Source: an uncultured delta proteobacterium (GTDB taxonomy: Bacteria; Desulfobacterota; Desulfobacteria; Desulfobacterales; Desulfosalsimonadaceae). Taken from it: DNA of 64,000 nucleotides. The position numbers and the translations under genes are program-made. Below are positions 28,038 through 39,074 of this stretch, piece by piece. The DNA is taken from assembly GCA_963826785.1 (NCBI GenBank), contig CAWGYD010000003.1, positions 192,001-256,000 on the forward strand. The letters are read 5' to 3'. The notes under the pieces were generated by a model. It was not told the origin of the DNA. It ran no database searches and saw only the letters and a program-made list of their open reading frames with translations. Within the stretch, counting starts at the first letter, position 1; each line of letters starts with the position of its first letter.

Positions 28038-28230
28038 CATGAATTTACTCTTGAAACCAAAGGGAAAATTTATATATTAAATAAGTTGTTCTCGCAAAGG
28101 CCCTTGAACAAAGTTTTTCGCGGCCTTTGCGGGAGCATGCTGTTTAGCGCCATGATGCAAGCCGGATCGTTCTTCCCCAGACGCGAGCGCGCGGCCGGAA
28201 AAATTGCAAATTCAACAAAACGAGAAGCAG

Positions 28231-30995
28231 ATGAACCCAAATACCCTCACCATCAACGGCAATTCTTTTGCCTTCCAGGAAGGTGAAACCATTCTGGAAG
28301 TCGCCCGGAAAAACCATATCGACATCCCCACGCTCTGCTACCTGAAAGGGGCCACCCCCACGGGGGCCTGCCGGATCTGCGTGGTGGAGGTCGAAAACGC
28401 GCGCAGCCTGATGCCCGCCTGCTCCACCCCGGCATCGGCCGGCATGAAAGTGCTCACCGAATCCCCCCAGGTGGTGGAATCCCGGAAAATGACGCTGCGG
28501 CTGCTCCTGTCCTCGGGAAACCACAACTGCGCGGTCCGGGGTTCGGATACGGGCAGCTGGACGGCGTTTCAGCTCAAGGTCCACCAGCAGGACGGCAGCG
28601 AGGACCTCTGCCCGGTCTGGGGCGACTGCGAACTCCAGAACCTGGCCTACCGTTACCAGGTCTCAGGGGATCAGCTTCCTGCCACCCGCACCCGCTATCC
28701 CATGGAAACCGTCAACCCGTTTATCATCCGGGATTTTTCCCGGTGCATCCTGTGCGGCAGATGCGTCCAGGCCTGCAACGATGTCCAGGTGAACAACGCC
28801 ATCAGCTTCGGCTACCGGGGGGCGGACACCAAGATCGTGGCCGCCGGCGACCGGCCCTTAAAGGATTCCGACTGCGTATTCTGCGGGGAATGCGTCCAGG
28901 CCTGCCCGGTGGGCGCCCTGGTGGAAAAGGATGCCCGTTACCGGTGGCGGCCCTGGGAAGTAAAAAAAGTCCGCACCACCTGCAGCTACTGCGGCGTGGG
29001 CTGCCAGATCGAACTGCAGGTCAAGGACAACAAGGTGGTCAAGGTCACCGGCGTGGATGAGCCCCCCAACAACGGCAGCCTGTGCGTCAAGGGCCGCTTC
29101 GGGTTTGACTTCATCGGCGCAAAAGACCGCCTGACCACCCCGCTGATCAAGGAAAACGGAAAATTCAGGGAAGCCACATGGGATGAGGCCCTGGATCTTA
29201 CCGCCCGGCGCCTCACCGAAATCAAGGAACAGTACGGCCCCGATGCTATCGGGGTGCTCACCTCGGCCCGGGTCACCAACGAGGAAAATTACCTGGCCAA
29301 CAAGTTCGCCCGCGCAGTGATCAAGACCAACAACATCGATCACTGCGCCCGCCTCTGACACAGCTCCACCGTGGCCGGTCTGGCCGCAGCATTCGGGAGC
29401 GGGGCGATGACCAACACCATCGCAGACATTGAAACGGCGGATGTCATCCTGGTGACGGGTTCCAACACCACGGAAAACCACCCGGTCCTGTCCAGCTTCG
29501 TCAAGCGGGCCAAGACCTTCCGGGGGGCCAAACTGATCGTGGTGGATCCCCGGCGCATCAAGCTGGCCGAAATGGCCGATCACTGGCTCCGGCCAAACCT
29601 GGGCACGGACGTGGCCTGGATCAACGGGCTGATGCACGTGGTCATCAAGGAGGAGCTTGCGGACAAGGAATTTATCAAAAAGCGCACCACCGGACTTTGA
29701 AGCCTTGAAGAAGGTGGTGGAAAAATTCACCCCGGCGTACGTGGAAAAGGTCACCGGCATCCCCGCCGGCCAGATCATCGAAGCGGCCCGGCTGTTTGCC
29801 AAAGCGTCTGCCGGGGCCATCCTGTACTGCATGGGGATCACCCAGCACACCACCGGCACGGACAACGTGAAATCCCTGGCCAACCTGGCCATGCTGTGCG
29901 GCCACATGGGCAAACCCGGCGGCGGGGTCAACCCCCTGCGGGGCCAGAACAACGTCCAGGGGGCCTGCGACATGGGCGGCCTGCCCAACGTGTTTACCGG
30001 ATACCAGCAGGTCACCGATGAGGCCGTGCGCCAGAAAATGGAAAAAGCCTGGGATGTCACCGGCCTTCCGGCCAAACCGGGGATGACCGTCACGGAGATG
30101 GTCCCAAAGGCCCATGACGGTGAAATGAAGGCCATGTACATCATCGGGGAGAACCCGCTGGTCTCCGACCCGGACCTCAACCATGCGGAAAAAAGCTTCT
30201 CACACCTCGATTTCCTGGTGGTCCAGGACATCTTCATGACCGAAACCGCGCTGACGGCCGACGTGGTCTTCCCCACTGCCTGTTTTGCGGAAAAGGAAGG
30301 GACGTTTTCCAATACGGAGCGGCGGGTGCAGCGGGTGAGAAAAGCAGTCGATGCGCCGGGATCGGCGAAAGACGACTGGCAGGTCACCTCTGAGATCGCC
30401 ACCCGCATGGGATATCCCATGAAATACAACAGCGCCGAGGAAATTTTTAATGAAATCGCGGCTGTGACGCCCTCTTATGCCGGCCTCTCCTATGAGCGCA
30501 TCGAAAAGAGGGGCATCCACTGGCCCTGCCCCACCGCGGATCACCCGGGAACGCCGATCCTGCACACCCAGCAGTTCACCCACGGCCTGGGGGTGTTTCA
30601 CGCCATCGACTTCATCCCGCCCGCGGAGCAGACAGACGAACAGTACCCGCTTTATCTCACCACCGGCCGGGTGCTCTACCAGTACCACACCGGCACCATG
30701 ACCCGGCGCACCGACGGGCTTAAACGAGCGGGCCCCGGGGTCATTCGTGGAAATATCGCCGGCGGACGCCGAAAAATACGGACTGGCCGACGGCGAGGTA
30801 ATCAACATCGCCTCCCGCCGGGGCGAAATCAAGGCCCAGCTCAAGGTCTCCGAAAAAGCGGTGACCGGCACGGTCTTCATCCCGTTTCATTTTGCCGAGG
30901 CGGCTGCCAACCGGCTCACCAACGCAGCACTGGACCCGGTGGCCAAGATCCCGGAGTACAAAGTCTGTGCGGTGAAGCTGTCCAGGGCTGCCTGA
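28231..30995 (+). CDS. fdhA: Selenocysteine-containing Mo/W formate dehydrogenase alpha subunit with a NuoG-like Fe-S N-terminus; Sec UGA at 29356-29358; frameshifts at ~29692 and ~30723
   Basis: IPTLC..., CILCGRC, CVFCGEC and CSYCGVGC motifs, [28 protein letters not shown] and C-terminal IPEYKVCAV. Confidence 0.92.
29359..29390 (+). promoter_or_regulatory. Bacterial SECIS element
   Basis: GTGGCC-GGTCT-GGCCGC hairpin starts about 12 nt after the UGA and resembles the E. coli fdhF SECIS apex. Confidence 0.8.
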
Positions 30996-31039
30996 GTTTT
31001 AAGCCCGTGCATGGCTGAATCGGCAGATCAACTGTAAAT

Positions 31040-31088
31040 AAAGCGGCCCGTATTTCCCCAAACCGGAAAATACGGGCCGCTTTGTTTT
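31040..31088. terminator. Bidirectional intrinsic terminator after fdhA
   Basis: AAAGCGGCCCGTATTT...AAATACGGGCCGCTTT. Confidence 0.85.
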
Positions 31089-31123
31089 CTCATCGCCGAT
31101 GGGTGGAATAGAACAAAAAAAAA

Positions 31124-31215
31124 TGAGGCAACCCTGCTGCCATATCTCTTCTTTTCAAAAGTGACTTAGGCCAGTGGCTTTGCGTCCCATCCTTTCGGGT
31201 GGTTTGCTTTTCTCG
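31124..31215 (-). ncRNA. GEMM-I (c-di-GMP-I family) aptamer, A20 variant, copy 1
   Basis: Minus strand GAGAAAAGCAAACCACCCGAAAGGATGGGACGCAAAGCCACTGGCCTAA...ATGGCAGCAGGGTTGCCTCA matches the Vc2-type core (GCAAACC, GAAA tetraloop, GGGACGCAAAGCC, CCTAA/ATGG receptor). Confidence 0.9.
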
Positions 31216-31563
31216 ATTTAAATTATTGTCCAGTCTTCTTTTGCACGTCAAACCGAACGCCCTCAAATTGCAGATGTCTGGTATTTCCTGCTGAGTCCTG
31301 CCATGGTGCGTTTCAATTAAAAAACAAGTCAATGTCAATAAGTCTATTTTCCGTTTCCGAATAAAAAAAAAAACAAATTAGAAAAAAATCAGTCAACCGC
31401 TCCCGTTTGCCGCACTGTGGAAGCGGCAAAATCGCATGGTTGGATAATTTCGGAAAAGATGCTATTGAAGGATACAATCATATTTCATAAGCAACTCTGC
31501 AAAGCAAAGCTCCGAAACAATTTCGATCGCAAATTATTTAAATTGGGTACTTGGAAAAATTGA

Positions 31564-33762
31564 GTGATAGAAAAACGCTTTGACATTGCCTTTATTGCAC
31601 AACTGGCCCTGCGCGAAAAGCAAATCCAGCAGAATTTCAGACCCATTATAGCCGTACATAAATGGTTTGCCAGAAGGCCGGGCACCCTCTTTCGCGGACT
31701 GTTGCTCTCTGAGTTTATTGACAAGCCTCTTCCCGAAACCTTTTATCAATTCAATTACCTGAAAGGCAAAAAGATAGCCGACCCTTTCATGGGCGGCGGC
31801 ACGCCATTGCTTGAGGCGAATCGACTTGGCTGCGATGTCATCGGATTCGATATTAATCCAATGTCCTATTGGATTGTAAAACAAGAAATCGAACACCTTA
31901 ATTTAGATGATTATGTTCAGGCCGCAAACAACTTGCGTCGCAACTTGGAGATGCAAATCGGCCATCTTTACCGAACCCGCTGTGTCTGCTGTGGAAATGA
32001 GAATGCTCATGTTAAGTATTTTTTATGGGTGAAGGTCTTGCACTGCCATATATGCCATCAATCCGTTGACCTGTTTCCGGGATATCTGATTTCGTCTGAT
32101 GTTCGACATCCGAAAAATGTTTTCATTTGTCATGCCTGTGGCGAAATTACCGAAACCGAAGATAAAAAAAATCCCGGTTCATGCAATCATTGTGGTGAGC
32201 TTCTCAAACTCGAAGGTCCGGCAAGAAGAAGTCGCTGCGAATGCCCGGGATGCGGAACCATTAACTTATTTCCCCAAAAAAATCCACTTCCTCCCAAACA
32301 CCGGCTTTTCGCCATCGAGTATTACTGTCCTGCATGCAAAAATGGACATAAAGGAAGGTTTTTTAAAATACCCGATGCACGGGATCTGAAAAATATAATC
32401 GAGGCGGAGAACAGATGGGAGAAAACCCTTTCGCAGTTTGTGCCGGAAGATGAAATCCCCGCGGGTGATGAAACCAATCGCCTTCACCGCTGGGGATATA
32501 CCCGGTATCATCAAATGTTTAATTCAAGGCAGCTGCTGGGGCTGGAATTATCTGCACATATGATTTCAAAAATAACTGATGTGCGTGTCCGGAATGCACT
32601 TATAACCAATCTTTCCGATCTGCTGCGATACCAGAATATGCTCTGCCGGTATGACACGATGGCTTTAAAATCACTTGATATTTTTTCGGTGCATGGATTT
32701 CCGGTCGGGTTGATTCAATGCGAGTCCAACCTTCCCGGTATTATCGAAGCCCCAAAAAATGGGTGTGTCGGAAGCGGCGGATGGGCAAACATAGTTGAAA
32801 AATTTAAAAAGGCCAAGGCGTATTGCGATCATCCTTTTGAAGTCAGATATCGTGGGGCTAAAAAGGAAATCGTGCCGATCAAGGGAGAATGGATTGGCGA
32901 CACGCTCAACGGTAAAACCCGGAGTGTGGAGATTAACTGCAAAGATGCCGCCAAAATCGAGTTTCCCGCATCCAGTTTGGATGCGGTGTTTACTGATCCA
33001 CCCTATTTTGGGAATGTTCAATATGCCGAATTGATGGATTTTTGTTATGTTTGGGTTCGACGAATAATGAACGGGGAAACCGAGGAATTTAAGAGTCCGT
33101 CCACCCGCCATGCGCAAGAGTTGACTGGCAACGAAGCAATGGGCAGAGGCCTCGATCATTTTGCCGGCGGACTGTCATCAATCTTTCAAAAAATGGCAAC
33201 TGCATTAAAGCCGGGGGCACCACTGGCATTCACCTATCATCATAATGACATCGTCGCCTATTATCCGGTTGCAGTAGCCATTCTTGATGCGGGACTGGCC
33301 TGCACAGCATCCATACCATGCCCGGCTGAAATGAGTGCTTCCATCCACATAAATGGCACCGGATCATCTATTATCGATACTGTTTTTGTGTGCCGGTCAA
33401 CAGGTACCATGCCGAGGAGATGGATTGTTGATTCAATCGAAGGAGTGGTGCAATTGATTAAGAATGATATTGCGCTGCTCGAATACGGCAAGGTGAAATC
33501 GACACCGGGCGATATCCGATGTATTGCTTACGGCCATTTGATTCGCCTGGCCATATGGAATCTGCGGTTGCAATGGGACAAGACTGCAGACATCAAAAAA
33601 CGATTGTCCATGGTTTCATCATGGCTGCTCAATTTCGGCACTTGGAGCGAAATTGAAAAAATTCTTCATGATTTGCCATTTAAGCCCATAGACCGGCCCC
33701 TTTTGACCGTGTGTGAAACCCATAAAACATATGGAAATGTTGATGCCGAAGTATCCTTTTGA
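31564..33762 (+). CDS. Amino-DNA methyltransferase with multiple Zn-ribbons (COG1743/DUF1156-like)
   Basis: HKWFARR, motif I DPFMGGG, motif IV TDPPY and six CxxC pairs. Visibly AT-richer than the flanks. Confidence 0.85.
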   Translation: MIEKRFDIAFIAQLALREKQIQQNFRPIIAVHKWFARRPGTLFRGLLLSEFIDKPLPETFYQFNYLKGKKIADPFMGGGTPLLEANRLGCDVIGFDINPMSYWIVKQEIEHLNLDDYVQAANNLRRNLEMQIGHLYRTRCVCCGNENAHVKYFLWVKVLHCHICHQSVDLFPGYLISSDVRHPKNVFICHACGEITETEDKKNPGSCNHCGELLKLEGPARRSRCECPGCGTINLFPQKNPLPPKHRLFAIEYYCPACKNGHKGRFFKIPDARDLKNIIEAENRWEKTLSQFVPEDEIPAGDETNRLHRWGYTRYHQMFNSRQLLGLELSAHMISKITDVRVRNALITNLSDLLRYQNMLCRYDTMALKSLDIFSVHGFPVGLIQCESNLPGIIEAPKNGCVGSGGWANIVEKFKKAKAYCDHPFEVRYRGAKKEIVPIKGEWIGDTLNGKTRSVEINCKDAAKIEFPASSLDAVFTDPPYFGNVQYAELMDFCYVWVRRIMNGETEEFKSPSTRHAQELTGNEAMGRGLDHFAGGLSSIFQKMATALKPGAPLAFTYHHNDIVAYYPVAVAILDAGLACTASIPCPAEMSASIHINGTGSSIIDTVFVCRSTGTMPRRWIVDSIEGVVQLIKNDIALLEYGKVKSTPGDIRCIAYGHLIRLAIWNLRLQWDKTADIKKRLSMVSSWLLNFGTWSEIEKILHDLPFKPIDRPLLTVCETHKTYGNVDAEVSF

Positions 33763-34774
33763 AGTCTCATTTGATGAAATTTACACTAATGCGGAACCAT
33801 ACGTGGATGCCGTCTTCTCATGTCTTGAATCAGAATTTCTAATCATGCCCAAGGGAGAAGGTTTTATCGAATACGCGGTATTTGAACGGGGCTATGAAGC
33901 TTTGAAAGCGGCGACTAAAGGTTTTTCTCAGATCGACACACAAGGGGTATGTTCGGTTGTATTGGCGGAGCCCATTTCTTTGATTGTATTGCGAGCCATG
34001 CTCGGGTTTACGCCCCCGGAATGGGGTTATATCACCACTCAGTTGACAGGGGTTAAGGTTAGCCAAGGGTTTGCTCGTTCTATCGATCGGAAAATACGGA
34101 GATCACCTGAATCTCCGATATATGCCAATGGTTTATTTACTGAGAGGCTGAAGGCATTGATCACCTCAGCCTGTCAATTGATTTCAGAAGGCATGCCACA
34201 AGTGCAAGAGAAATTCTTGCATCGCTTGAACAAAGCCGATACCCGGCAAGGAACAGACAGTCTCAAAAACATTTCTCAAATGGGTGCTCCCTATGCCATG
34301 CTTCTATATGAACGTTTTCTGGGCCGACCATTTGCTGGTCACAGGGACTCCGTAAGTGAACTTGTAGGTGAAAGCCTTGAATCCGCAATCGAAGATGTTT
34401 TAACAAATGCGGGAATCAGCTATCGAAAAACCAAAAGGGCTGAACGAATAGAAGGATTCGACCAAGTTCCGGATTTTATTGTCCCGAGTGAATTCAATCC
34501 CCAAGTGATCATAGAGGCGAAAATTACGGAAGATGACGGCACCGCCCGAGATAAAGTAACCCGCATTCAGCATCTCGGTCATTTGAGCCTTGTTGGGCGA
34601 TCTGATGACAATCCAAGGTTTGAGGTGATTGCCTGTATCGACGGTCGTGGTTTCGGTGTTCGGCGTGAAGACATGAAAAAAATGCTTCTGGCTACAAGGG
34701 GGAAGGTTTTTACGCTGAAAACCCTGAGCCAAATGATTGATTTTACTAGTTTGAAAAATTTTAGATCTAAGTAG
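33743..34774 (+). CDS. Putative Type II restriction endonuclease (PD-(D/E)xK)
   Basis: VPDFIVP...IIEAK motif. Overlaps the MTase stop and lies in the same AT-richer block. Confidence 0.65.
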   Translation: MPKYPFEVSFDEIYTNAEPYVDAVFSCLESEFLIMPKGEGFIEYAVFERGYEALKAATKGFSQIDTQGVCSVVLAEPISLIVLRAMLGFTPPEWGYITTQLTGVKVSQGFARSIDRKIRRSPESPIYANGLFTERLKALITSACQLISEGMPQVQEKFLHRLNKADTRQGTDSLKNISQMGAPYAMLLYERFLGRPFAGHRDSVSELVGESLESAIEDVLTNAGISYRKTKRAERIEGFDQVPDFIVPSEFNPQVIIEAKITEDDGTARDKVTRIQHLGHLSLVGRSDDNPRFEVIACIDGRGFGVRREDMKKMLLATRGKVFTLKTLSQMIDFTSLKNFRSK

Positions 34775-34895
34775 TCTTAGATTTACACCGCGCATTGCCC
34801 CGATCATGAAACAGCTTATTATGTAATGTAGATGTTATCCGTGCACTCCTTGTGCAGGAGAATGCCAGTGAATCTTTCATCAGGGGATTTTGCTC

Positions 34896-37166
34896 ATGCG
34901 CGAAGAAGATGTTCTGTTCTATCACAGTGCGCCTCGACCGGGAAAGATCGAGGTGGTGCCTACCAAATCCTGCGTCTCCCAGTCCGACCTGTGCCTGGCC
35001 TATACCCCCGGAGTGGGTTTTCCCTCCCTGGCCGTCCAGAGGGACCCGAATCTCGCCTATGAATACACCGCCAAAAGCAACCTGGTGGGGGTGGTCACCA
35101 ACGGCACGGCCGTGCTGGGGCTGGGCAATATCGGGGCCCTGGCCGCCAAGCCGGTCATGGAAGGCAAGGCGGTGCTGTTCAAGCGGTTTGCGGACCTGGA
35201 CGTATTCGACATCGAGGTGAACACCACCGACCCGGACGAGTTTATCCGCACGGTGAAATCTCTGGAACCGACCTTCGGCGGCATTAACCTGGAAGATATC
35301 AAGGCGCCGGACTGTTTCTACATCGAAGAGAAGCTCAAAAAGGAAATGGGGATTCCCGTGTTCCACGATGACCAGCACGGCACCGCCATTATCTCAGGCG
35401 CGGCCCTGATCAATGCCTGCGCCCTGACCGCAAGGACGCTGGAGCATCTTAAAATCGTGATCAACGGGGCGGGGGCGGCGGCCATTGCCACGGCCAAAAT
35501 GTATATCCACCTCGGCGTAAAGAAATACAACCTGATCATGTGCGATTCCAAGGGGGTGATCTACAGGGGAAGGCAAGCCGGCATGAATCCCTACAAGGCG
35601 GAATTTGCCGCAGATACGGATCGGCGAACCCTGGAGGACGCCGTTGCGGGCGCCGACGCCCTGGTGGGGCTTTCGGTCAAGGGCGCCTTTACCCCGGATC
35701 TGTTAAAGCGAATGGCCGAAAAACCGATCATCTTCGCCCTGGCCAACCCGGACGCGGAAATCGGGTACTGGGAAGCCAGGGAAGCCCGGCCGGATGCCGT
35801 CATCGCCACCGGCCGCTCGGATTATCCCAACCAGGTCAACAACGTGCTGGGATTTCCCTTTATTTTCCGGGGTGCGCTGGATGTACGGGCATCGGCCATC
35901 AACATGGAAATGATGGTGGCGGCGGTGCGTGCCCTGGCCGAACTGCCCCGTGAAGACGTTCCGGACGCAGTGATTCGTGCATACGGCAGCGAGCCCATCC
36001 GGTTCGGCCCGGAATACATCATCCCCAAACCCCTCGATCCCCGGGTGCTGCTCAAAGTGGCCCCGGCCGTGGCCCTGGCCGCGGTGGAAAGCGGCGTGTC
36101 CCGGATCCGGCTGCCCAAGCGCACGGCCTACATCCAGTCTTTGGAAGCCCGTCTGGGTCCGGAGCGGGAAATCATGCGCAAAATCATCGTCCGGGCCCAG
36201 CAGGATTTCAAAACCATTGTGCTTCCCGAAGGGGACCATCCGGTAATTCTCCGGGCGGCCAGCCATGTGGTGCGCGAGCGCATCGCCCGCCCCCTGCTTC
36301 TGGGAAAGCCGGTACAGATCGAAGCGGCGGCCCGCCAGTTGAATGTTTCCCTCGATGATATCGAAATCATGGATCCACTGGAAAGCCCGGTGTTCGACCG
36401 GTTCGCCCAAAGCCTGCACGAGGCCCGGGCCCGCCGGGGGTGGGGAATGGCCGAAACCCGGCGGCAACTGCAGAACCGCTATGTTTTCGGGGCCATGATG
36501 GTCAAGGAGGGGCTGGTGGACGGCCAGGTCCACGGCATCAGCCGGCCCTACCCGGATGCCATCCGCCCCGTCCTGCAGGTCATTGCCCGGCGGGAGGGGT
36601 TCTCAAGAGTGGGGGGCGTCTACCTGATGATATTCAGGGACCGGATCCTGCTGTTTGCCGATGCCACGATCAACATCCGGCCCGATTCGAATGACCTGGC
36701 CGAAATGGCCATCCTGTCTTCGGAAATGGCCCGCTTTTTTGATATCGAACCCCGGGTGGCCATGATCTCGTTTTCCAACTTCGGCAACACCCGGCACCCG
36801 GATGCCAAGCGGGTGGAAGAAGCGGTAACGATTGCCCGAAAACGGGCGCCGCACCTGGTCATTGACGGCGAAATGCAGGCCGACACCGCAGTGGTCGGCG
36901 ATATTCTGATGAAGGACTACCCGTTCAACCGCCTGGGCGGTCCGGCCAACGTGCTGATCTTTCCGGATCTCGACGCGGGCAACGCATCATACAAGCTTCT
37001 GGTCCACCTGGGCGGCGCCAAGGCCGTCGGGCCTCTGCTCATGGGAATCAGCCGGCCCTTCAATGTGGTGCCACGGGGAACGGATATGGAAAACGTGGTC
37101 AATGTGATCGCCATCACCGTGGCCCAGGCCCAGGAGCAAGACCGGAAGAGACTAAAAAAGACATGA
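34896..37166 (+). CDS. maeB: NADP-dependent malic enzyme with a PTA-like C-terminal domain
   Basis: [39 protein letters not shown] and DGEMQAD motifs. Confidence 0.95.
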
Positions 37167-37249
37167 ATCAGATTAAAATCCACGCATGAATCTGTCAAAC
37201 AAAGCAAAAGAGGGGGAAAAACATGGCGGGGGGGAAAAAACAAAAAAAA

Positions 37250-37356
37250 TGAGGCAACCCTGCTGCCGTATTGTTTTTCTTAAAGTTTCCTCTTTAAAAA
37301 ACAACTTAGGCCAGTGGCTTTGCGTCCCACCCTTTCGGCATGGTTTGCTTTTCTCT
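37250..37356 (-). ncRNA. GEMM-I (c-di-GMP-I family) aptamer, A20 variant, copy 2
   Basis: Minus strand GAGAAAAGCAAACCATGCCGAAAGGGTGGGACGCAAAGCCACTGGCCTAA-[AT-rich hairpin]-ACGGCAGCAGGGTTGCCTCA followed by 8 T. Confidence 0.9.
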
Positions 37357-37362
37357 GATTAT

Positions 37363-37391
37363 AAAATATGTACGGCCTGCAGAGGTGTCAA
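37363..37391 (-). promoter_or_regulatory. sigma70-type promoter directly upstream of aptamer copy 2
   Basis: TTGACA-N17-TATTTT. Copy 1 has TTGACG-N18-AATAAT at 31222-31251. Confidence 0.6.
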
Positions 37392-37512: not shown

Positions 37513-38064
37513 CTATTTTTTTGAAATGAAGGGATTGTTCTCGATATAAAAACGCAGAGGCTTTATGGCCCAGTCACCGGCATAATCGACACCGATGCGT
37601 GGTTTTTCAATGATGTTAAAAGATCGCGTATCGGGGATTTGGGCAATATAAAAATCGTCGCTGATCAGGTCGTGCCCGTTGAGGGACCGGTCGATGTGCA
37701 TGGCGGCGCACAGCAGGCCCGGACCGCGGGTGTTGCCATCGATGCGGGAAACGGGCTCCAGTGCCCGGATCAAAACGGCGGATGCATGCCCACCCGGTCC
37801 GGTCACCACATTGAAGCAGTGATGAAGGCCGTAGACCAGATACACGTAGGCATGCCCCGGGGGGCCGAACATGACCTCGGTGCGTTTCGTCCTTCCCCGG
37901 GCGGAATGGGCCGCCAGATCGTCAGGTCCCAGGTAGGCTTCCGTCTCCACGATGCTTCCGATCCGTGGGGTCTTACGCCATACCCGGACCAGATATTTCC
38001 CCAGAAGGTTTCGGGCCGCATCATTTGCATCCCGATCATAAAACGCACGGGTGAGTTTTTCCAT
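37513..38064 (-). CDS. 3-methyladenine DNA glycosylase (AAG/MPG family)
   Basis: IVETEAY, YVYLVYGLH, VLIRALEP, GPG.LC and RIGV motifs. Confidence 0.92.
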   Translation of the reverse strand: MEKLTRAFYDRDANDAARNLLGKYLVRVWRKTPRIGSIVETEAYLGPDDLAAHSARGRTKRTEVMFGPPGHAYVYLVYGLHHCFNVVTGPGGHASAVLIRALEPVSRIDGNTRGPGLLCAAMHIDRSLNGHDLISDDFYIAQIPDTRSFNIIEKPRIGVDYAGDWAIKPLRFYIENNPFISKK

Positions 38065-38089: not shown

Positions 38090-38575
38090 TCACCACCGGC
38101 TCATGACCTCGATGCCCCGCTTCTTGGCGATTTCATCCTGAAGCTGTTGAAACTGGGTCCCCACCACCTCGATCAAATAGGACATGACGCGAAAACCCAG
38201 ATCCGCATCCTTGTCGAAAAGCCCCAGGAGGTCCTCCCGGCCCAGCCGGATCACCTTGCAGGAACGTGAGATGCAGTAGCCCGAGAGCTGGTAATGATAA
38301 GGCGGTACAAAGCAGGTCCATCCGAAGGCATGGGCCGTGGACATGAACGAGACTTCCGGCTCTGCGGCAGAAGACTGATTTTCCGCCGGTTCGGTCCTCA
38401 ATTCCACATCGCCCTCCACCACGATCCAGACACTGACCGCATCTTCGCCCTGGGCGAATATCCGCTCTGTGCGCCTGAACTCGACGATTTCAGCGCAATC
38501 CTGAATCATCCGGAGCTGATCATCGCTCAGCTGCTTAAAAACATCCACTTTATCCAGAAAGTCAATGCTAATCAA
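38090..38575 (-). CDS. Stand-alone cyclic-nucleotide-binding domain protein
   Basis: IFAQGE...VVEGDV...FGW beta-barrel pattern with no HTH. Confidence 0.8.
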   Translation of the reverse strand: MISIDFLDKVDVFKQLSDDQLRMIQDCAEIVEFRRTERIFAQGEDAVSVWIVVEGDVELRTEPAENQSSAAEPEVSFMSTAHAFGWTCFVPPYHYQLSGYCISRSCKVIRLGREDLLGLFDKDADLGFRVMSYLIEVVGTQFQQLQDEIAKKRGIEVMSRW

Positions 38576-38594
38576 TCGCTTCCCCTTTCGAATC

Positions 38595-39074
38595 TTACGA
38601 ATCCGTTTGCTTTACCGGTGTCTTTAAAACCGCGGTCTCCTGCAGCTTCTGAAATCGCGCCCCGACGATCCGCAGCATCGCCGAAAGCACACGATAACCG
38701 ATGCCGGGATTTTCCTTGAGATAGGCCATCAACTGCTCCCGTTCAATCAGGAGCACCCGGACTTCAGGTGAGGCGCAATACGCGCTCAGTTTGTACTGGT
38801 GGGGCGGAATCAGGCTTGACCATCCCATGATCCTGTTTTCATGGACGGAAGAGAGAGTGCTTTCCCCGGAGGTTTCCCGGCCCGGCAGGTCAAACCGGAG
38901 ATCGACCCGCCCCTGCCTGACCACCCACAGATGATTTGCGGTTTCCCCTTCTTTGAAAAGCTGCTGCCCCTGCTGAAAACTCTTTTCGGTAGCCGCTTTT
39001 TCGATGACGGTCAGCTGCGCGTCCGTCAAATCCTGAAAGGCTTCGACTTTCTTTAAGAATTCGAGATAGGCCAA
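38595..39074 (-). CDS. Stand-alone cyclic-nucleotide-binding domain protein (paralog)
   Basis: LFKEGE...VRQGRV...MGWSSL pattern, similar to the neighbouring gene. Confidence 0.8.
   Translation of the reverse strand: MAYLEFLKKVEAFQDLTDAQLTVIEKAATEKSFQQGQQLFKEGETANHLWVVRQGRVDLRFDLPGRETSGESTLSSVHENRIMGWSSLIPPHQYKLSAYCASPEVRVLLIEREQLMAYLKENPGIGYRVLSAMLRIVGARFQKLQETAVLKTPVKQTDS

Follow-up and report, generated by a model that had tools for sequence, protein, structure and literature searches.

Riboswitch aptamers are nearly always read as cis regulators, and in the original description of the GEMM motif 297 of 309 instances were in a 5′ regulatory position, with 12 classed as non-cis (PMC1950547). 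The closest described system in which such an aptamer lacks a gene is merRNA of Bdellovibrio bacteriovorus, a riboswitch small RNA (sRNA) for cyclic diguanylate (c-di-GMP) with no conserved downstream open reading frame (ORF) that has been proposed to serve as a store or sponge for the ligand (Karunker et al. 2013, PMC3627812), a proposal that rests on a single lineage. A variant of the same aptamer class, GEMM-Ib, recognizes 3′,3′-cyclic GMP-AMP (written 3′,3′-cGAMP below) and is identified by an A in place of G20, with roles assigned to G20 and C92 (PMC6140456). Here we describe two GEMM-I aptamers with no sense gene behind them, together with the family to which they belong, in a stretch of 64,000 nucleotides (nt) from an uncultured delta proteobacterium of the family Desulfosalsimonadaceae (GenBank assembly GCA_963826785.1, contig CAWGYD010000003.1, positions 192,001 to 256,000; hereafter the window, with all coordinates relative to its first letter). 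Judging from the sequence, we think the chances are about even that these units specify stand-alone aptamer sRNAs that would act as a sink or buffer for cyclic dinucleotides and not as gene switches. A small gene-less family of ~100 nt makes a clean test object for the sponge idea; if the idea is true, RNA joins proteins as a bacterial second-messenger buffer, and annotation that assigns every GEMM-I match to the next gene is wrong for the gene-less class.

A covariance-model scan of the entire window against Rfam 15 returned exactly two matches above the gathering score, both to the c-di-GMP-I (GEMM-I) model RF01051 (gathering score 35), both on the minus strand and both covering model positions 1–87. 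Copy 1 lies at 31124–31218 (76.6 bits, E 2.7e-13) and copy 2 at 37250–37359 (68.8 bits, E 2.2e-11). The original prediction, which had been made from the letters of the window and had named a match to this model as a check, placed the aptamers at 31124–31215 and 37250–37356, and is thus correct to within 3 nt. In the RF01051 alignment both copies show two adjacent hairpins, a GNRA tetraloop with its receptor, and an AAA linker; in copy 1 these appear as a GAAA loop, a receptor-like CCUAAG...UAUGG (the name of the receptor motif is used as it was for GEMM in PMC1950547) and a CGCAAAG linker. From the predicted start to the run of T residues that follows the aptamer, the two copies are identical at 87 of 101 aligned positions, and the 20 gapped columns between them fall in the second helix's distal hairpin, in keeping with the earlier remark that the core is conserved while the distal P3 hairpin differs. 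Both copies retain A at model position 38 and C at position 83. Model position 11, however, is A and not G, both in copy 1 (base 31208, minus strand) and in copy 2 (base 37349, minus strand), as it is in all 24 aligned members of the family described below. Given a constant offset of 9, we infer that positions 11, 38 and 83 correspond to G20, A47 and C92 of the Vc2 aptamer, so that the A-for-G20 substitution characteristic of GEMM-Ib is present in both copies and in every aligned member. Minus-strand ORFs are found at the two loci (31090–31338, 82 aa; 36917–37243, 108 aa), and we rejected a small-ORF reading of them: neither has a Pfam match, they overlap the aptamer or lie antisense inside maeB, and nothing downstream is conserved.

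Each aptamer is preceded by a promoter-like site that finishes 4 nt upstream of the match. Specifically, copy 1 has TTGACG (−35) and AATAAT (−10) separated by an 18-nt spacer (31222–31251, minus strand), and copy 2 has TTGACA and TATTTT separated by 17 nt (37363–37391, minus strand), each with 10 of 12 matches in a consensus scan. Because shuffles of the region yield about one such site by chance, it is conservation in relatives that provides the real support for these promoters: in the 24-member alignment the TTGA of the −35 box is invariant, and positions 2 (A) and 6 (T) of the −10 box are invariant or nearly so. Promoter spacing and the invariant G of the motif GRGAAAAGC, 7–8 nt past the −10 box, would put the 5′ end of the RNA at about 31214 for copy 1 and about 37355 for copy 2. 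At the other end, each T-run begins one base past the final aptamer position, with 9 T in copy 1 (31115–31123, minus strand) and 8 T in copy 2 (37242–37249, minus strand), and the T-run is conserved in the family; with the 3′ end placed in this U-tract, the predicted RNAs would be ~99 nt (copy 1) and ~113 nt (copy 2). The sigma70-like promoter before each aptamer and the 8–9-nt U-tract directly behind it, both features of the original prediction, are therefore present in the two copies.

The unit recurs in other genomes. A DNA search of 61 related genomes detected the conserved core in 14 of them and the whole unit only in Desulfobacteraceae bacterium isolate LH_M58 (G003, from the same GTDB family), at two loci. 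An exact-pattern search (core ... GGGYTGCC, 2–6 nt, T7) over one genome per species for 185,579 species returned 16 loci. Seven of these belong to the family, in that each combines a 5′ half of the A20 type with a promoter-like TTGAC, and they come from metagenome-assembled genomes (MAGs) labelled Desulfobacteraceae, Desulfobulbaceae or delta proteobacterium; one aptamer (L037), from an Atribacterota MAG, has G20 and is followed by a gene; and eight, which are without the 5′ half, were discarded by inspection as chance matches. Searching metagenome contigs with a pattern for the A20 5′ half gave 52 loci, about two-fifths of which have the family's 3′ half and T-run. In all we recognize 27 distinct members (26 plus one in a further genome, G228), of which two are those described here, two are in G003, five are in five further MAGs, one is in G228 and the remainder are on metagenome contigs. 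Members can be clustered: one metagenome contig (19001–24440) carries three in the same orientation within 3.2 kb (L056–L058), one per intergenic space.

Alignments of 4 and of 24 sequences show homology that runs from the −35 box through the aptamer to the T-run, with nothing conserved past the T-run. The flanking genes vary from locus to locus without synteny among members, and at the two loci in the window the only repeats in common are those of the promoter–aptamer–T-run unit itself. The description of each copy as self-contained is borne out by this recurrence, at unrelated loci, of a unit bounded by the −35 box and the T-run. A mobile-element reading was rejected, as neither inverted nor direct repeats flank the two copies. 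Within the unit, the conserved nucleotides are all GEMM-I core positions; the loops are variable, and the tail shows conservation of its composition alone. To assess pairing we used the 24-member alignment with the Rfam helices, to which a 3-bp closing helix (GRG/CUC) was added, giving 504 cells, and 500 shuffles. In the aptamer fold 98.8% of the 504 cells are paired and six pairs are doubly changed, values that none of the 500 shuffles reached, and partners slid out of register are paired in only 33–49% of cells. One member (L024) offers a clean swap in the second helix, from CUG to CUC on one strand and from CAG to GAG on the other. This covariation of the aptamer helices upholds the inference of selection on structure that had been drawn from the two copies. 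The closing helix is paired in all 24 members (GC in 24; AU in 18 and GU in 6; GC in 23 and GU in 1) with no double change; because the variation is one-sided (AU 18, GU 6), this helix is compatible with the model but not proven.

Two structures could end the RNA at the U-tract, and termination may proceed via either: a 6-bp local hairpin, or the aptamer in its entirety, with the 3-bp GRG/CUC helix closing it next to A plus U8–9. The local hairpin, GGCAGCAGGGUUGCC, is made of 3′ residues of the aptamer and would be an alternative terminator stem (copy 1, 31127–31141; copy 2, 37253–37267; both minus strand). It has 6 bp and −7.7 kcal/mol and is followed by UCA and U8/9; the combination of GGCAGCAGGGTTGCC and TCATTTTTTT was flagged as an intrinsic terminator in both copies. 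The efficiency of termination at this hairpin is uncertain because the stem is short and the first three bases of the tail are UCA. In the closing-helix reading the predicted partners are CUC at 31125–31127 and GAG at 31212–31214 in copy 1, and CUC at 37251–37253 and GAG at 37353–37355 in copy 2 (all minus strand), and a single A is left between the aptamer and the U-run. Because both strands of the local hairpin are aptamer residues, it cannot coexist with the aptamer fold. When the copy 1 RNA, from its start to CUCA, is folded without constraint, the minimum free energy structure is the aptamer fold with its GRG/CUC closing helix, and the aptamer fold beats the best local-hairpin fold in 20 of 24 members, by a mean of 2.3 kcal/mol. 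Pairing in the local hairpin is extensive (98.6% of cells), with one co-varying pair (CG 12, UG 6, UA 5 and one mismatch), a value that 24 of 500 shuffles reached; covariation this weak neither proves nor excludes the stem. Five members have a decayed T-run, and four of them (L062, L068, L070 and L077, but not L060) carry, 52–101 nt past the aptamer, a hairpin terminator of their own (−20.7 to −23.7 kcal/mol). Because decayed T-runs are backed by separate terminators in this way, ending the RNA right behind the aptamer looks like a selected trait. On the plus strand, we note that the antisense of the first aptamer hairpin of copy 1, followed by TTTGCTTTTC, is itself terminator-like (31187–31202).

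Past the U-tract there is a tail that is rich in C and poor in G, at 31088–31114 for copy 1 and 37170–37241 for copy 2 (both minus strand; in copy 2 the first 40 nt have 16 C and 5 G). Family-wide, the 40 nt past the T-run average 12.4 C versus 6.6 G on the strand of the element, and 20 of 25 members have more C than G; this imbalance weakens at 40–80 nt, is gone by +120 and is not seen upstream of the promoter. L035 and three members whose aptamer is directly followed by a terminator make up four exceptions. A C-rich, G-poor composition is that preferred by the termination factor Rho. A match to Rho (PF07497) is present in each of the five other carrier genomes searched, and none was found in the genome's own assembly, which is 87.8% complete. 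A Rho-type back-up stop for read-through transcripts would fit a self-contained RNA; the alternative is that the tail is a C-rich seed on a longer isoform.

GEMM-I riboswitches typically lie in the 5′ untranslated region of the gene that they control, and neither copy does so. Behind both there are only the 3′ ends of convergent genes, which agrees with the original prediction that no sense gene lies downstream and that copy 1 runs into the fdhA terminator and copy 2 into the 3′ end of maeB. The gene convergent to copy 1 encodes an fdhA-like molybdopterin oxidoreductase (3′ part at 29657–31018, plus strand; PF00384, 5.7e-44), and between its stop at 31018 and the aptamer unit there is a bidirectional hairpin terminator at 31036–31087, recognized as an inverted repeat and by folding, with a 19-bp stem, 23-nt arms that are 91% complementary, a hairpin energy of −31.2 kcal/mol and a T-rich tail; the 90-nt stretch that holds it folds at −39.1 kcal/mol (z −6.1). 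The gene convergent to copy 2 is maeB, for a malic enzyme with a PTA domain (34890–37166, plus strand; PF01515, 1.5e-96, with PF00390 and PF03949), whose stop is at 37166; between the U-tract and maeB we found no hairpin of −9 kcal/mol or lower with a T-run behind it.

To examine context across the family, we mapped ORFs and Pfam domains around the 24 members with at least 600 nt of flanking sequence (L050 and L093 were excluded for short flanks, and L098 falls outside the Pfam assessment). Seventeen members point at a convergent gene (for L029 and L056 the call is by ORF length alone) and four have a sense gene, at distances of +140 to +479: an Rrf2 gene at +335 (L035), a glyoxalase-type gene at +479 (L054), a lycopene-cyclase-type gene at +140 (L057) and a DsrE gene at +385 (L062). 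The other three (L055, L058 and L060, the last with a 96-aa signal-peptide-like ORF at +39) were assigned to neither class. As a control we applied a blind rule, taking the longest ORF in the first 600 nt downstream, to the other A20 GEMM-I aptamers from the same metagenome scan, and all 22 were followed by a sense ORF. By the same rule the family has 10 sense, 12 convergent and 3 none (Fisher 6e-5 for 10 versus 12 against the control, a rough p since kin are not independent), and Pfam overturns 4 of the 10 sense calls (L030, L068, L070 and L080). Counting hits that lack a downstream sense ORF, as the original prediction had suggested, thus sets 17 of 24 convergent members against a control that is sense throughout.

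The genome's own assembly (11 contigs) contains nine RF01051-type aptamers, including the two in the window. The other seven look like conventional riboswitches in that all have a Shine–Dalgarno sequence and ATG no more than 260 nt downstream, and four of them have a terminator of the classical type, in which the 5′ strand competes against the second aptamer hairpin's 3′ strand. In each of the seven, G occupies the position equivalent to G20, just before the first helix; among the nine, A at that position (GAGAAAAGCAAACC) and a T-run directly behind the aptamer occur only in the two window copies. Separately, we noted a group of GEMM-I aptamers (L012–L017) in a genome (G055) and a genus (g3) of the same family that share the core of copy 1, with up to 98% identity over 49 nt, and carry ~100–140 extra nt in the distal second hairpin, so that 205–237 nt separate A/G20 from the 3′ strand. 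A sense ORF or a Shine–Dalgarno sequence and ATG is found downstream of L012–L015; at L016 the longest downstream ORF is convergent and the only sense ORF is one of 120 aa; and the 3′ part of L017 was not located. Four of the five (L012–L016) look cis-regulatory, and on ORF inspection, made without Pfam, we set the group aside as not clearly gene-less.

We propose that each unit would be transcribed from its own sigma70-type promoter into a free RNA of the predicted length, ending at the U-tract, and that this aptamer RNA would bind in trans a cyclic dinucleotide that may be c-di-GMP and/or 3′,3′-cGAMP. Promoter activity and copy number (2, 2 and 3 copies are seen) would set the level of the RNA and with it the free messenger that remains, and ligand, once bound, would not be freed until the RNA is degraded. 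In its broadest form, as a conserved, multi-copy "aptamer-only" gene family of the Desulfobacterota, composed of promoter, A20 GEMM-I aptamer and terminator with a C-rich Rho-type back-up, that titrates a cyclic dinucleotide and is the first aptamer family dedicated to buffering, the proposal is one that we advance tentatively and at somewhat less than even odds. Several points weigh against a sink. The sink function itself is something that we purely infer, and the sponge model for merRNA is, in its authors' own words, unvalidated (PMC3627812). The family is rare: when 401 genomes sampled from the order were searched with an exact pattern, only G000 and G228 had it. The excess of convergent over sense genes (17 versus 4; binomial 0.007, with kin not independent) is a bias that would not follow from a free sRNA gene. 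Nor can efficient constitutive termination be taken for granted, given the short hairpin of −7.7 kcal/mol, the UCA gap and the more stable aptamer fold, and the C-rich, G-poor tail suggests that read-through transcripts exist and matter. Finally, Hypr GGDEF proteins, which make cGAMP, have Ser at the Asp specificity position (PMC6456294), and none was found in the genome's own 87.8% complete assembly, where 16 of 16 GGDEF domains have Asp.

The directional bias favours a reading in which the unit would be a ligand-gated terminator without a gene, at which RNA polymerase either stops at the U-tract or runs on toward the convergent gene and tunes it through antisense RNA or polymerase collision. 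The logic could possibly go either way: ligand might stabilize the GRG/CUC helix abutting A plus U8 and so cause termination (OFF), or lock up the strands of the local hairpin and so allow read-through (ON). That 17 of the 21 assigned contexts are convergent speaks for such gating, as do two folds that exclude one another and lie ~2.3 kcal/mol apart, which is typical of a switch, and the failure to detect a second terminator ahead of the convergent gene, in copy 2 as in several other members. Overlap between a terminator and the second hairpin's 3′ side is moreover common (78 of 322 GEMM instances; PMC1950547), and in the Atribacterota locus L037 (1501–1563, minus strand; G20) a 4-bp closing helix, GUUG/CGAC, directly abuts U8 with a sense gene at +135, which appears to be an OFF design in a cis setting in which the aptamer is the terminator. 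The convergent genes are, however, unrelated to one another (fdhA-like, maeB, LOG/AAA_33, GltD-like, DinB_2, histidine kinases, encapsulin, methyltransferase, GSDH, HNH, LysR and Dabb), and no sequence downstream is conserved. Strong terminators block read-through at copy 1 and at L024; those of L062, L068, L070 and L077 have no visible complementarity to the aptamer and so cannot be gated; and the C-rich, G-poor tail, with Rho in five of five other carriers, looks like a means of stopping read-through and not of using it. Gated antisense transcription, one of two possibilities raised originally, is thus possible for maeB but unlikely for fdhA because of the very strong bidirectional terminator between copy 1 and that gene. 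Across the family, a free ligand-binding sRNA, the other of the two, fits the data better, and we regard the gated terminator as unlikely overall, at perhaps one chance in five.

The same tail can be turned to a different account, in which the RNA acts in trans beyond sequestration, through ligand-dependent binding of a protein or RNA or through a C-rich seed directed against Shine–Dalgarno regions. The tail lies directly past the T-run in 20 of 25 members, and read-through of copy 1 to the next terminator would give an RNA of ~190 nt with a single-stranded UUCCACCC and a strong terminator hairpin; in Clostridioides difficile, prematurely terminated c-di-GMP riboswitch transcripts co-purify with Hfq, and action in trans has been raised (PMC8583004). 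Yet Hfq (PF17209) was found neither in the present genome nor in the five other carriers searched (0 of 6), on which basis we rejected an Hfq-dependent sRNA, the conserved nucleotides are confined to the GEMM-I core while potential seed loops vary, and the three members with a terminator directly behind the aptamer do without the C-rich tail. A trans-acting RNA of this kind consequently seems to us a poor prospect, a little below that of the gated terminator. Least probable of all, and by our estimate quite improbable, is that the units are relics or neutral passengers, either riboswitches that have lost their gene or repeats that serve as intergenic terminators or insulators. Their patchy, rare distribution is what one might expect of relics, the 12 non-cis cases among 309 GEMM instances were likewise left without explanation (PMC1950547), and the terminator-like plus-strand hairpin with TTTGCTTTTC could stop transcripts of the convergent gene. 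A decaying relic would not be expected, however, to keep its promoter, its putative ligand-contact positions and compensated pairing in 27 copies at unrelated loci, nor is there a mobile element's flanking repeat around a unit to which the shared repeats are limited. Loss of a regulated gene from these very loci, which had been listed as an outcome that would tell against gene-less RNAs, was rejected too: no relative has a GEMM-I aptamer plus gene at the fdhA or maeB position, there is no synteny, and the two copies in G003 are at other loci.

The ligand is a puzzle, as the aptamers are of the A20, cGAMP type in genomes without a recognizable cGAMP synthase. In addition to the lack of a Hypr enzyme, the genome's own assembly has no match to the SMODS family of CD-NTases (PF18144; the Pfam family specific to DncV was not searched). 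In the five other carriers we inspected 70 of 80 GGDEF matches (the 10 left out were low-scoring) and found Asp in 63, a degenerate site in 6 and Ser in 1. This protein (L158; G228:C446:12636-13106) has the motif GHINGS ... GGDEF, with Val replacing the guanine-contacting Asn, and is, of the 86 GGDEF domains that we inspected across six carrier genomes, the only one with Ser. Selectivity cannot be read from A20 by itself, because the Vc2 G20A mutant and the Clostridium aptamer Cbe 1-2 bind both c-di-GMP and cGAMP (PMC6140456). Candidate ligands are accordingly c-di-GMP, bound through A20, cGAMP from an unrecognized source, or both.

The surroundings of the two units have further features. Between the units are a gene for a 732-aa DNA-methyltransferase-like protein (31564–33762, plus strand), which matches the PADLOC models HmaB, DUF1156_MTase and PglX at E values of 1e-23 to 1e-25, and an ORF of 353 aa (33713–34774, plus strand) with neither a Pfam nor a PADLOC match; the region 31564–34774 may be a fragment of a defence island. 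The fdhA-like gene as a whole (28204–31018, plus strand) has an in-frame TGA of selenocysteine type at 29356–29358, in the context HCARL-U-HSS, and an apparent one-base change of frame near 29690–29700 (...KKRTTG, then FEALKKVV in the next frame), which an assembly error, a pseudogene or recoding could explain. Upstream of copy 2 lies a methylpurine glycosylase gene (37513–38064, minus strand), and upstream of that, at 38090–39074 on the minus strand, are two adjacent genes for proteins with cyclic-nucleotide-binding domains (161 and 159 aa).

Published work already covers the aptamer class, the A20 variant and the sponge idea; a conserved, minimal, gene-less family of A20 GEMM-I aptamers was not described in the literature that we searched, a search whose coverage excluded most subscription journals. 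Compared with canonical GEMM-I (RF01051; Weinberg et al. 2007, PMC1950547), the units have the same hairpins, GAAA tetraloop and receptor, and AAA linker, but whereas 297 of 309 canonical instances are in 5′ regulatory position, 17 of 24 family members are convergent to the next gene, and the units have A for G20 and no separate expression platform. The 3′,3′-cGAMP riboswitches of Geobacter (GEMM-Ib) have A at G20, as here (PMC6140456, PMC6456294); they are ON-switches with terminators placed before cytochrome, pilus and polysaccharide genes and work together with the Hypr GGDEF protein GacA (Ser348), whereas here there is no regulated gene and the present assembly has no GGDEF domain of the Ser type. 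There is also a likeness to riboswitch-derived RNAs that act in trans or antisense, in that the output of the aptamer is not the gene behind it. EutX/Rli55 belongs to this group. Others are a SAM (S-adenosylmethionine) riboswitch transcript that acts on prfA in Listeria (cited in PMC8583004) and a riboswitch-controlled antisense RNA (cited in PMC3627812). Those RNAs have a cis gene or a defined effector, such as a seed or a protein site, whereas the present family has no conserved part outside the aptamer. The nearest counterpart is merRNA, which likewise combines a c-di-GMP-I aptamer with the lack of a conserved downstream ORF, though the RNA is here a predicted one and the likeness is judged on the aptamer only. 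The present units have A at G20 and are multi-copy (2–3), and merRNA was defined by massive expression in the attack phase, whereas the present RNAs are predicted from sequence. Whereas merRNA is 445 nt long and is described as not conserved outside Bdellovibrio, the RNAs predicted here would be ~100 nt, a bare aptamer running to its U-tract, and belong to a family that extends across MAGs labelled Desulfobacteraceae and Desulfobulbaceae.

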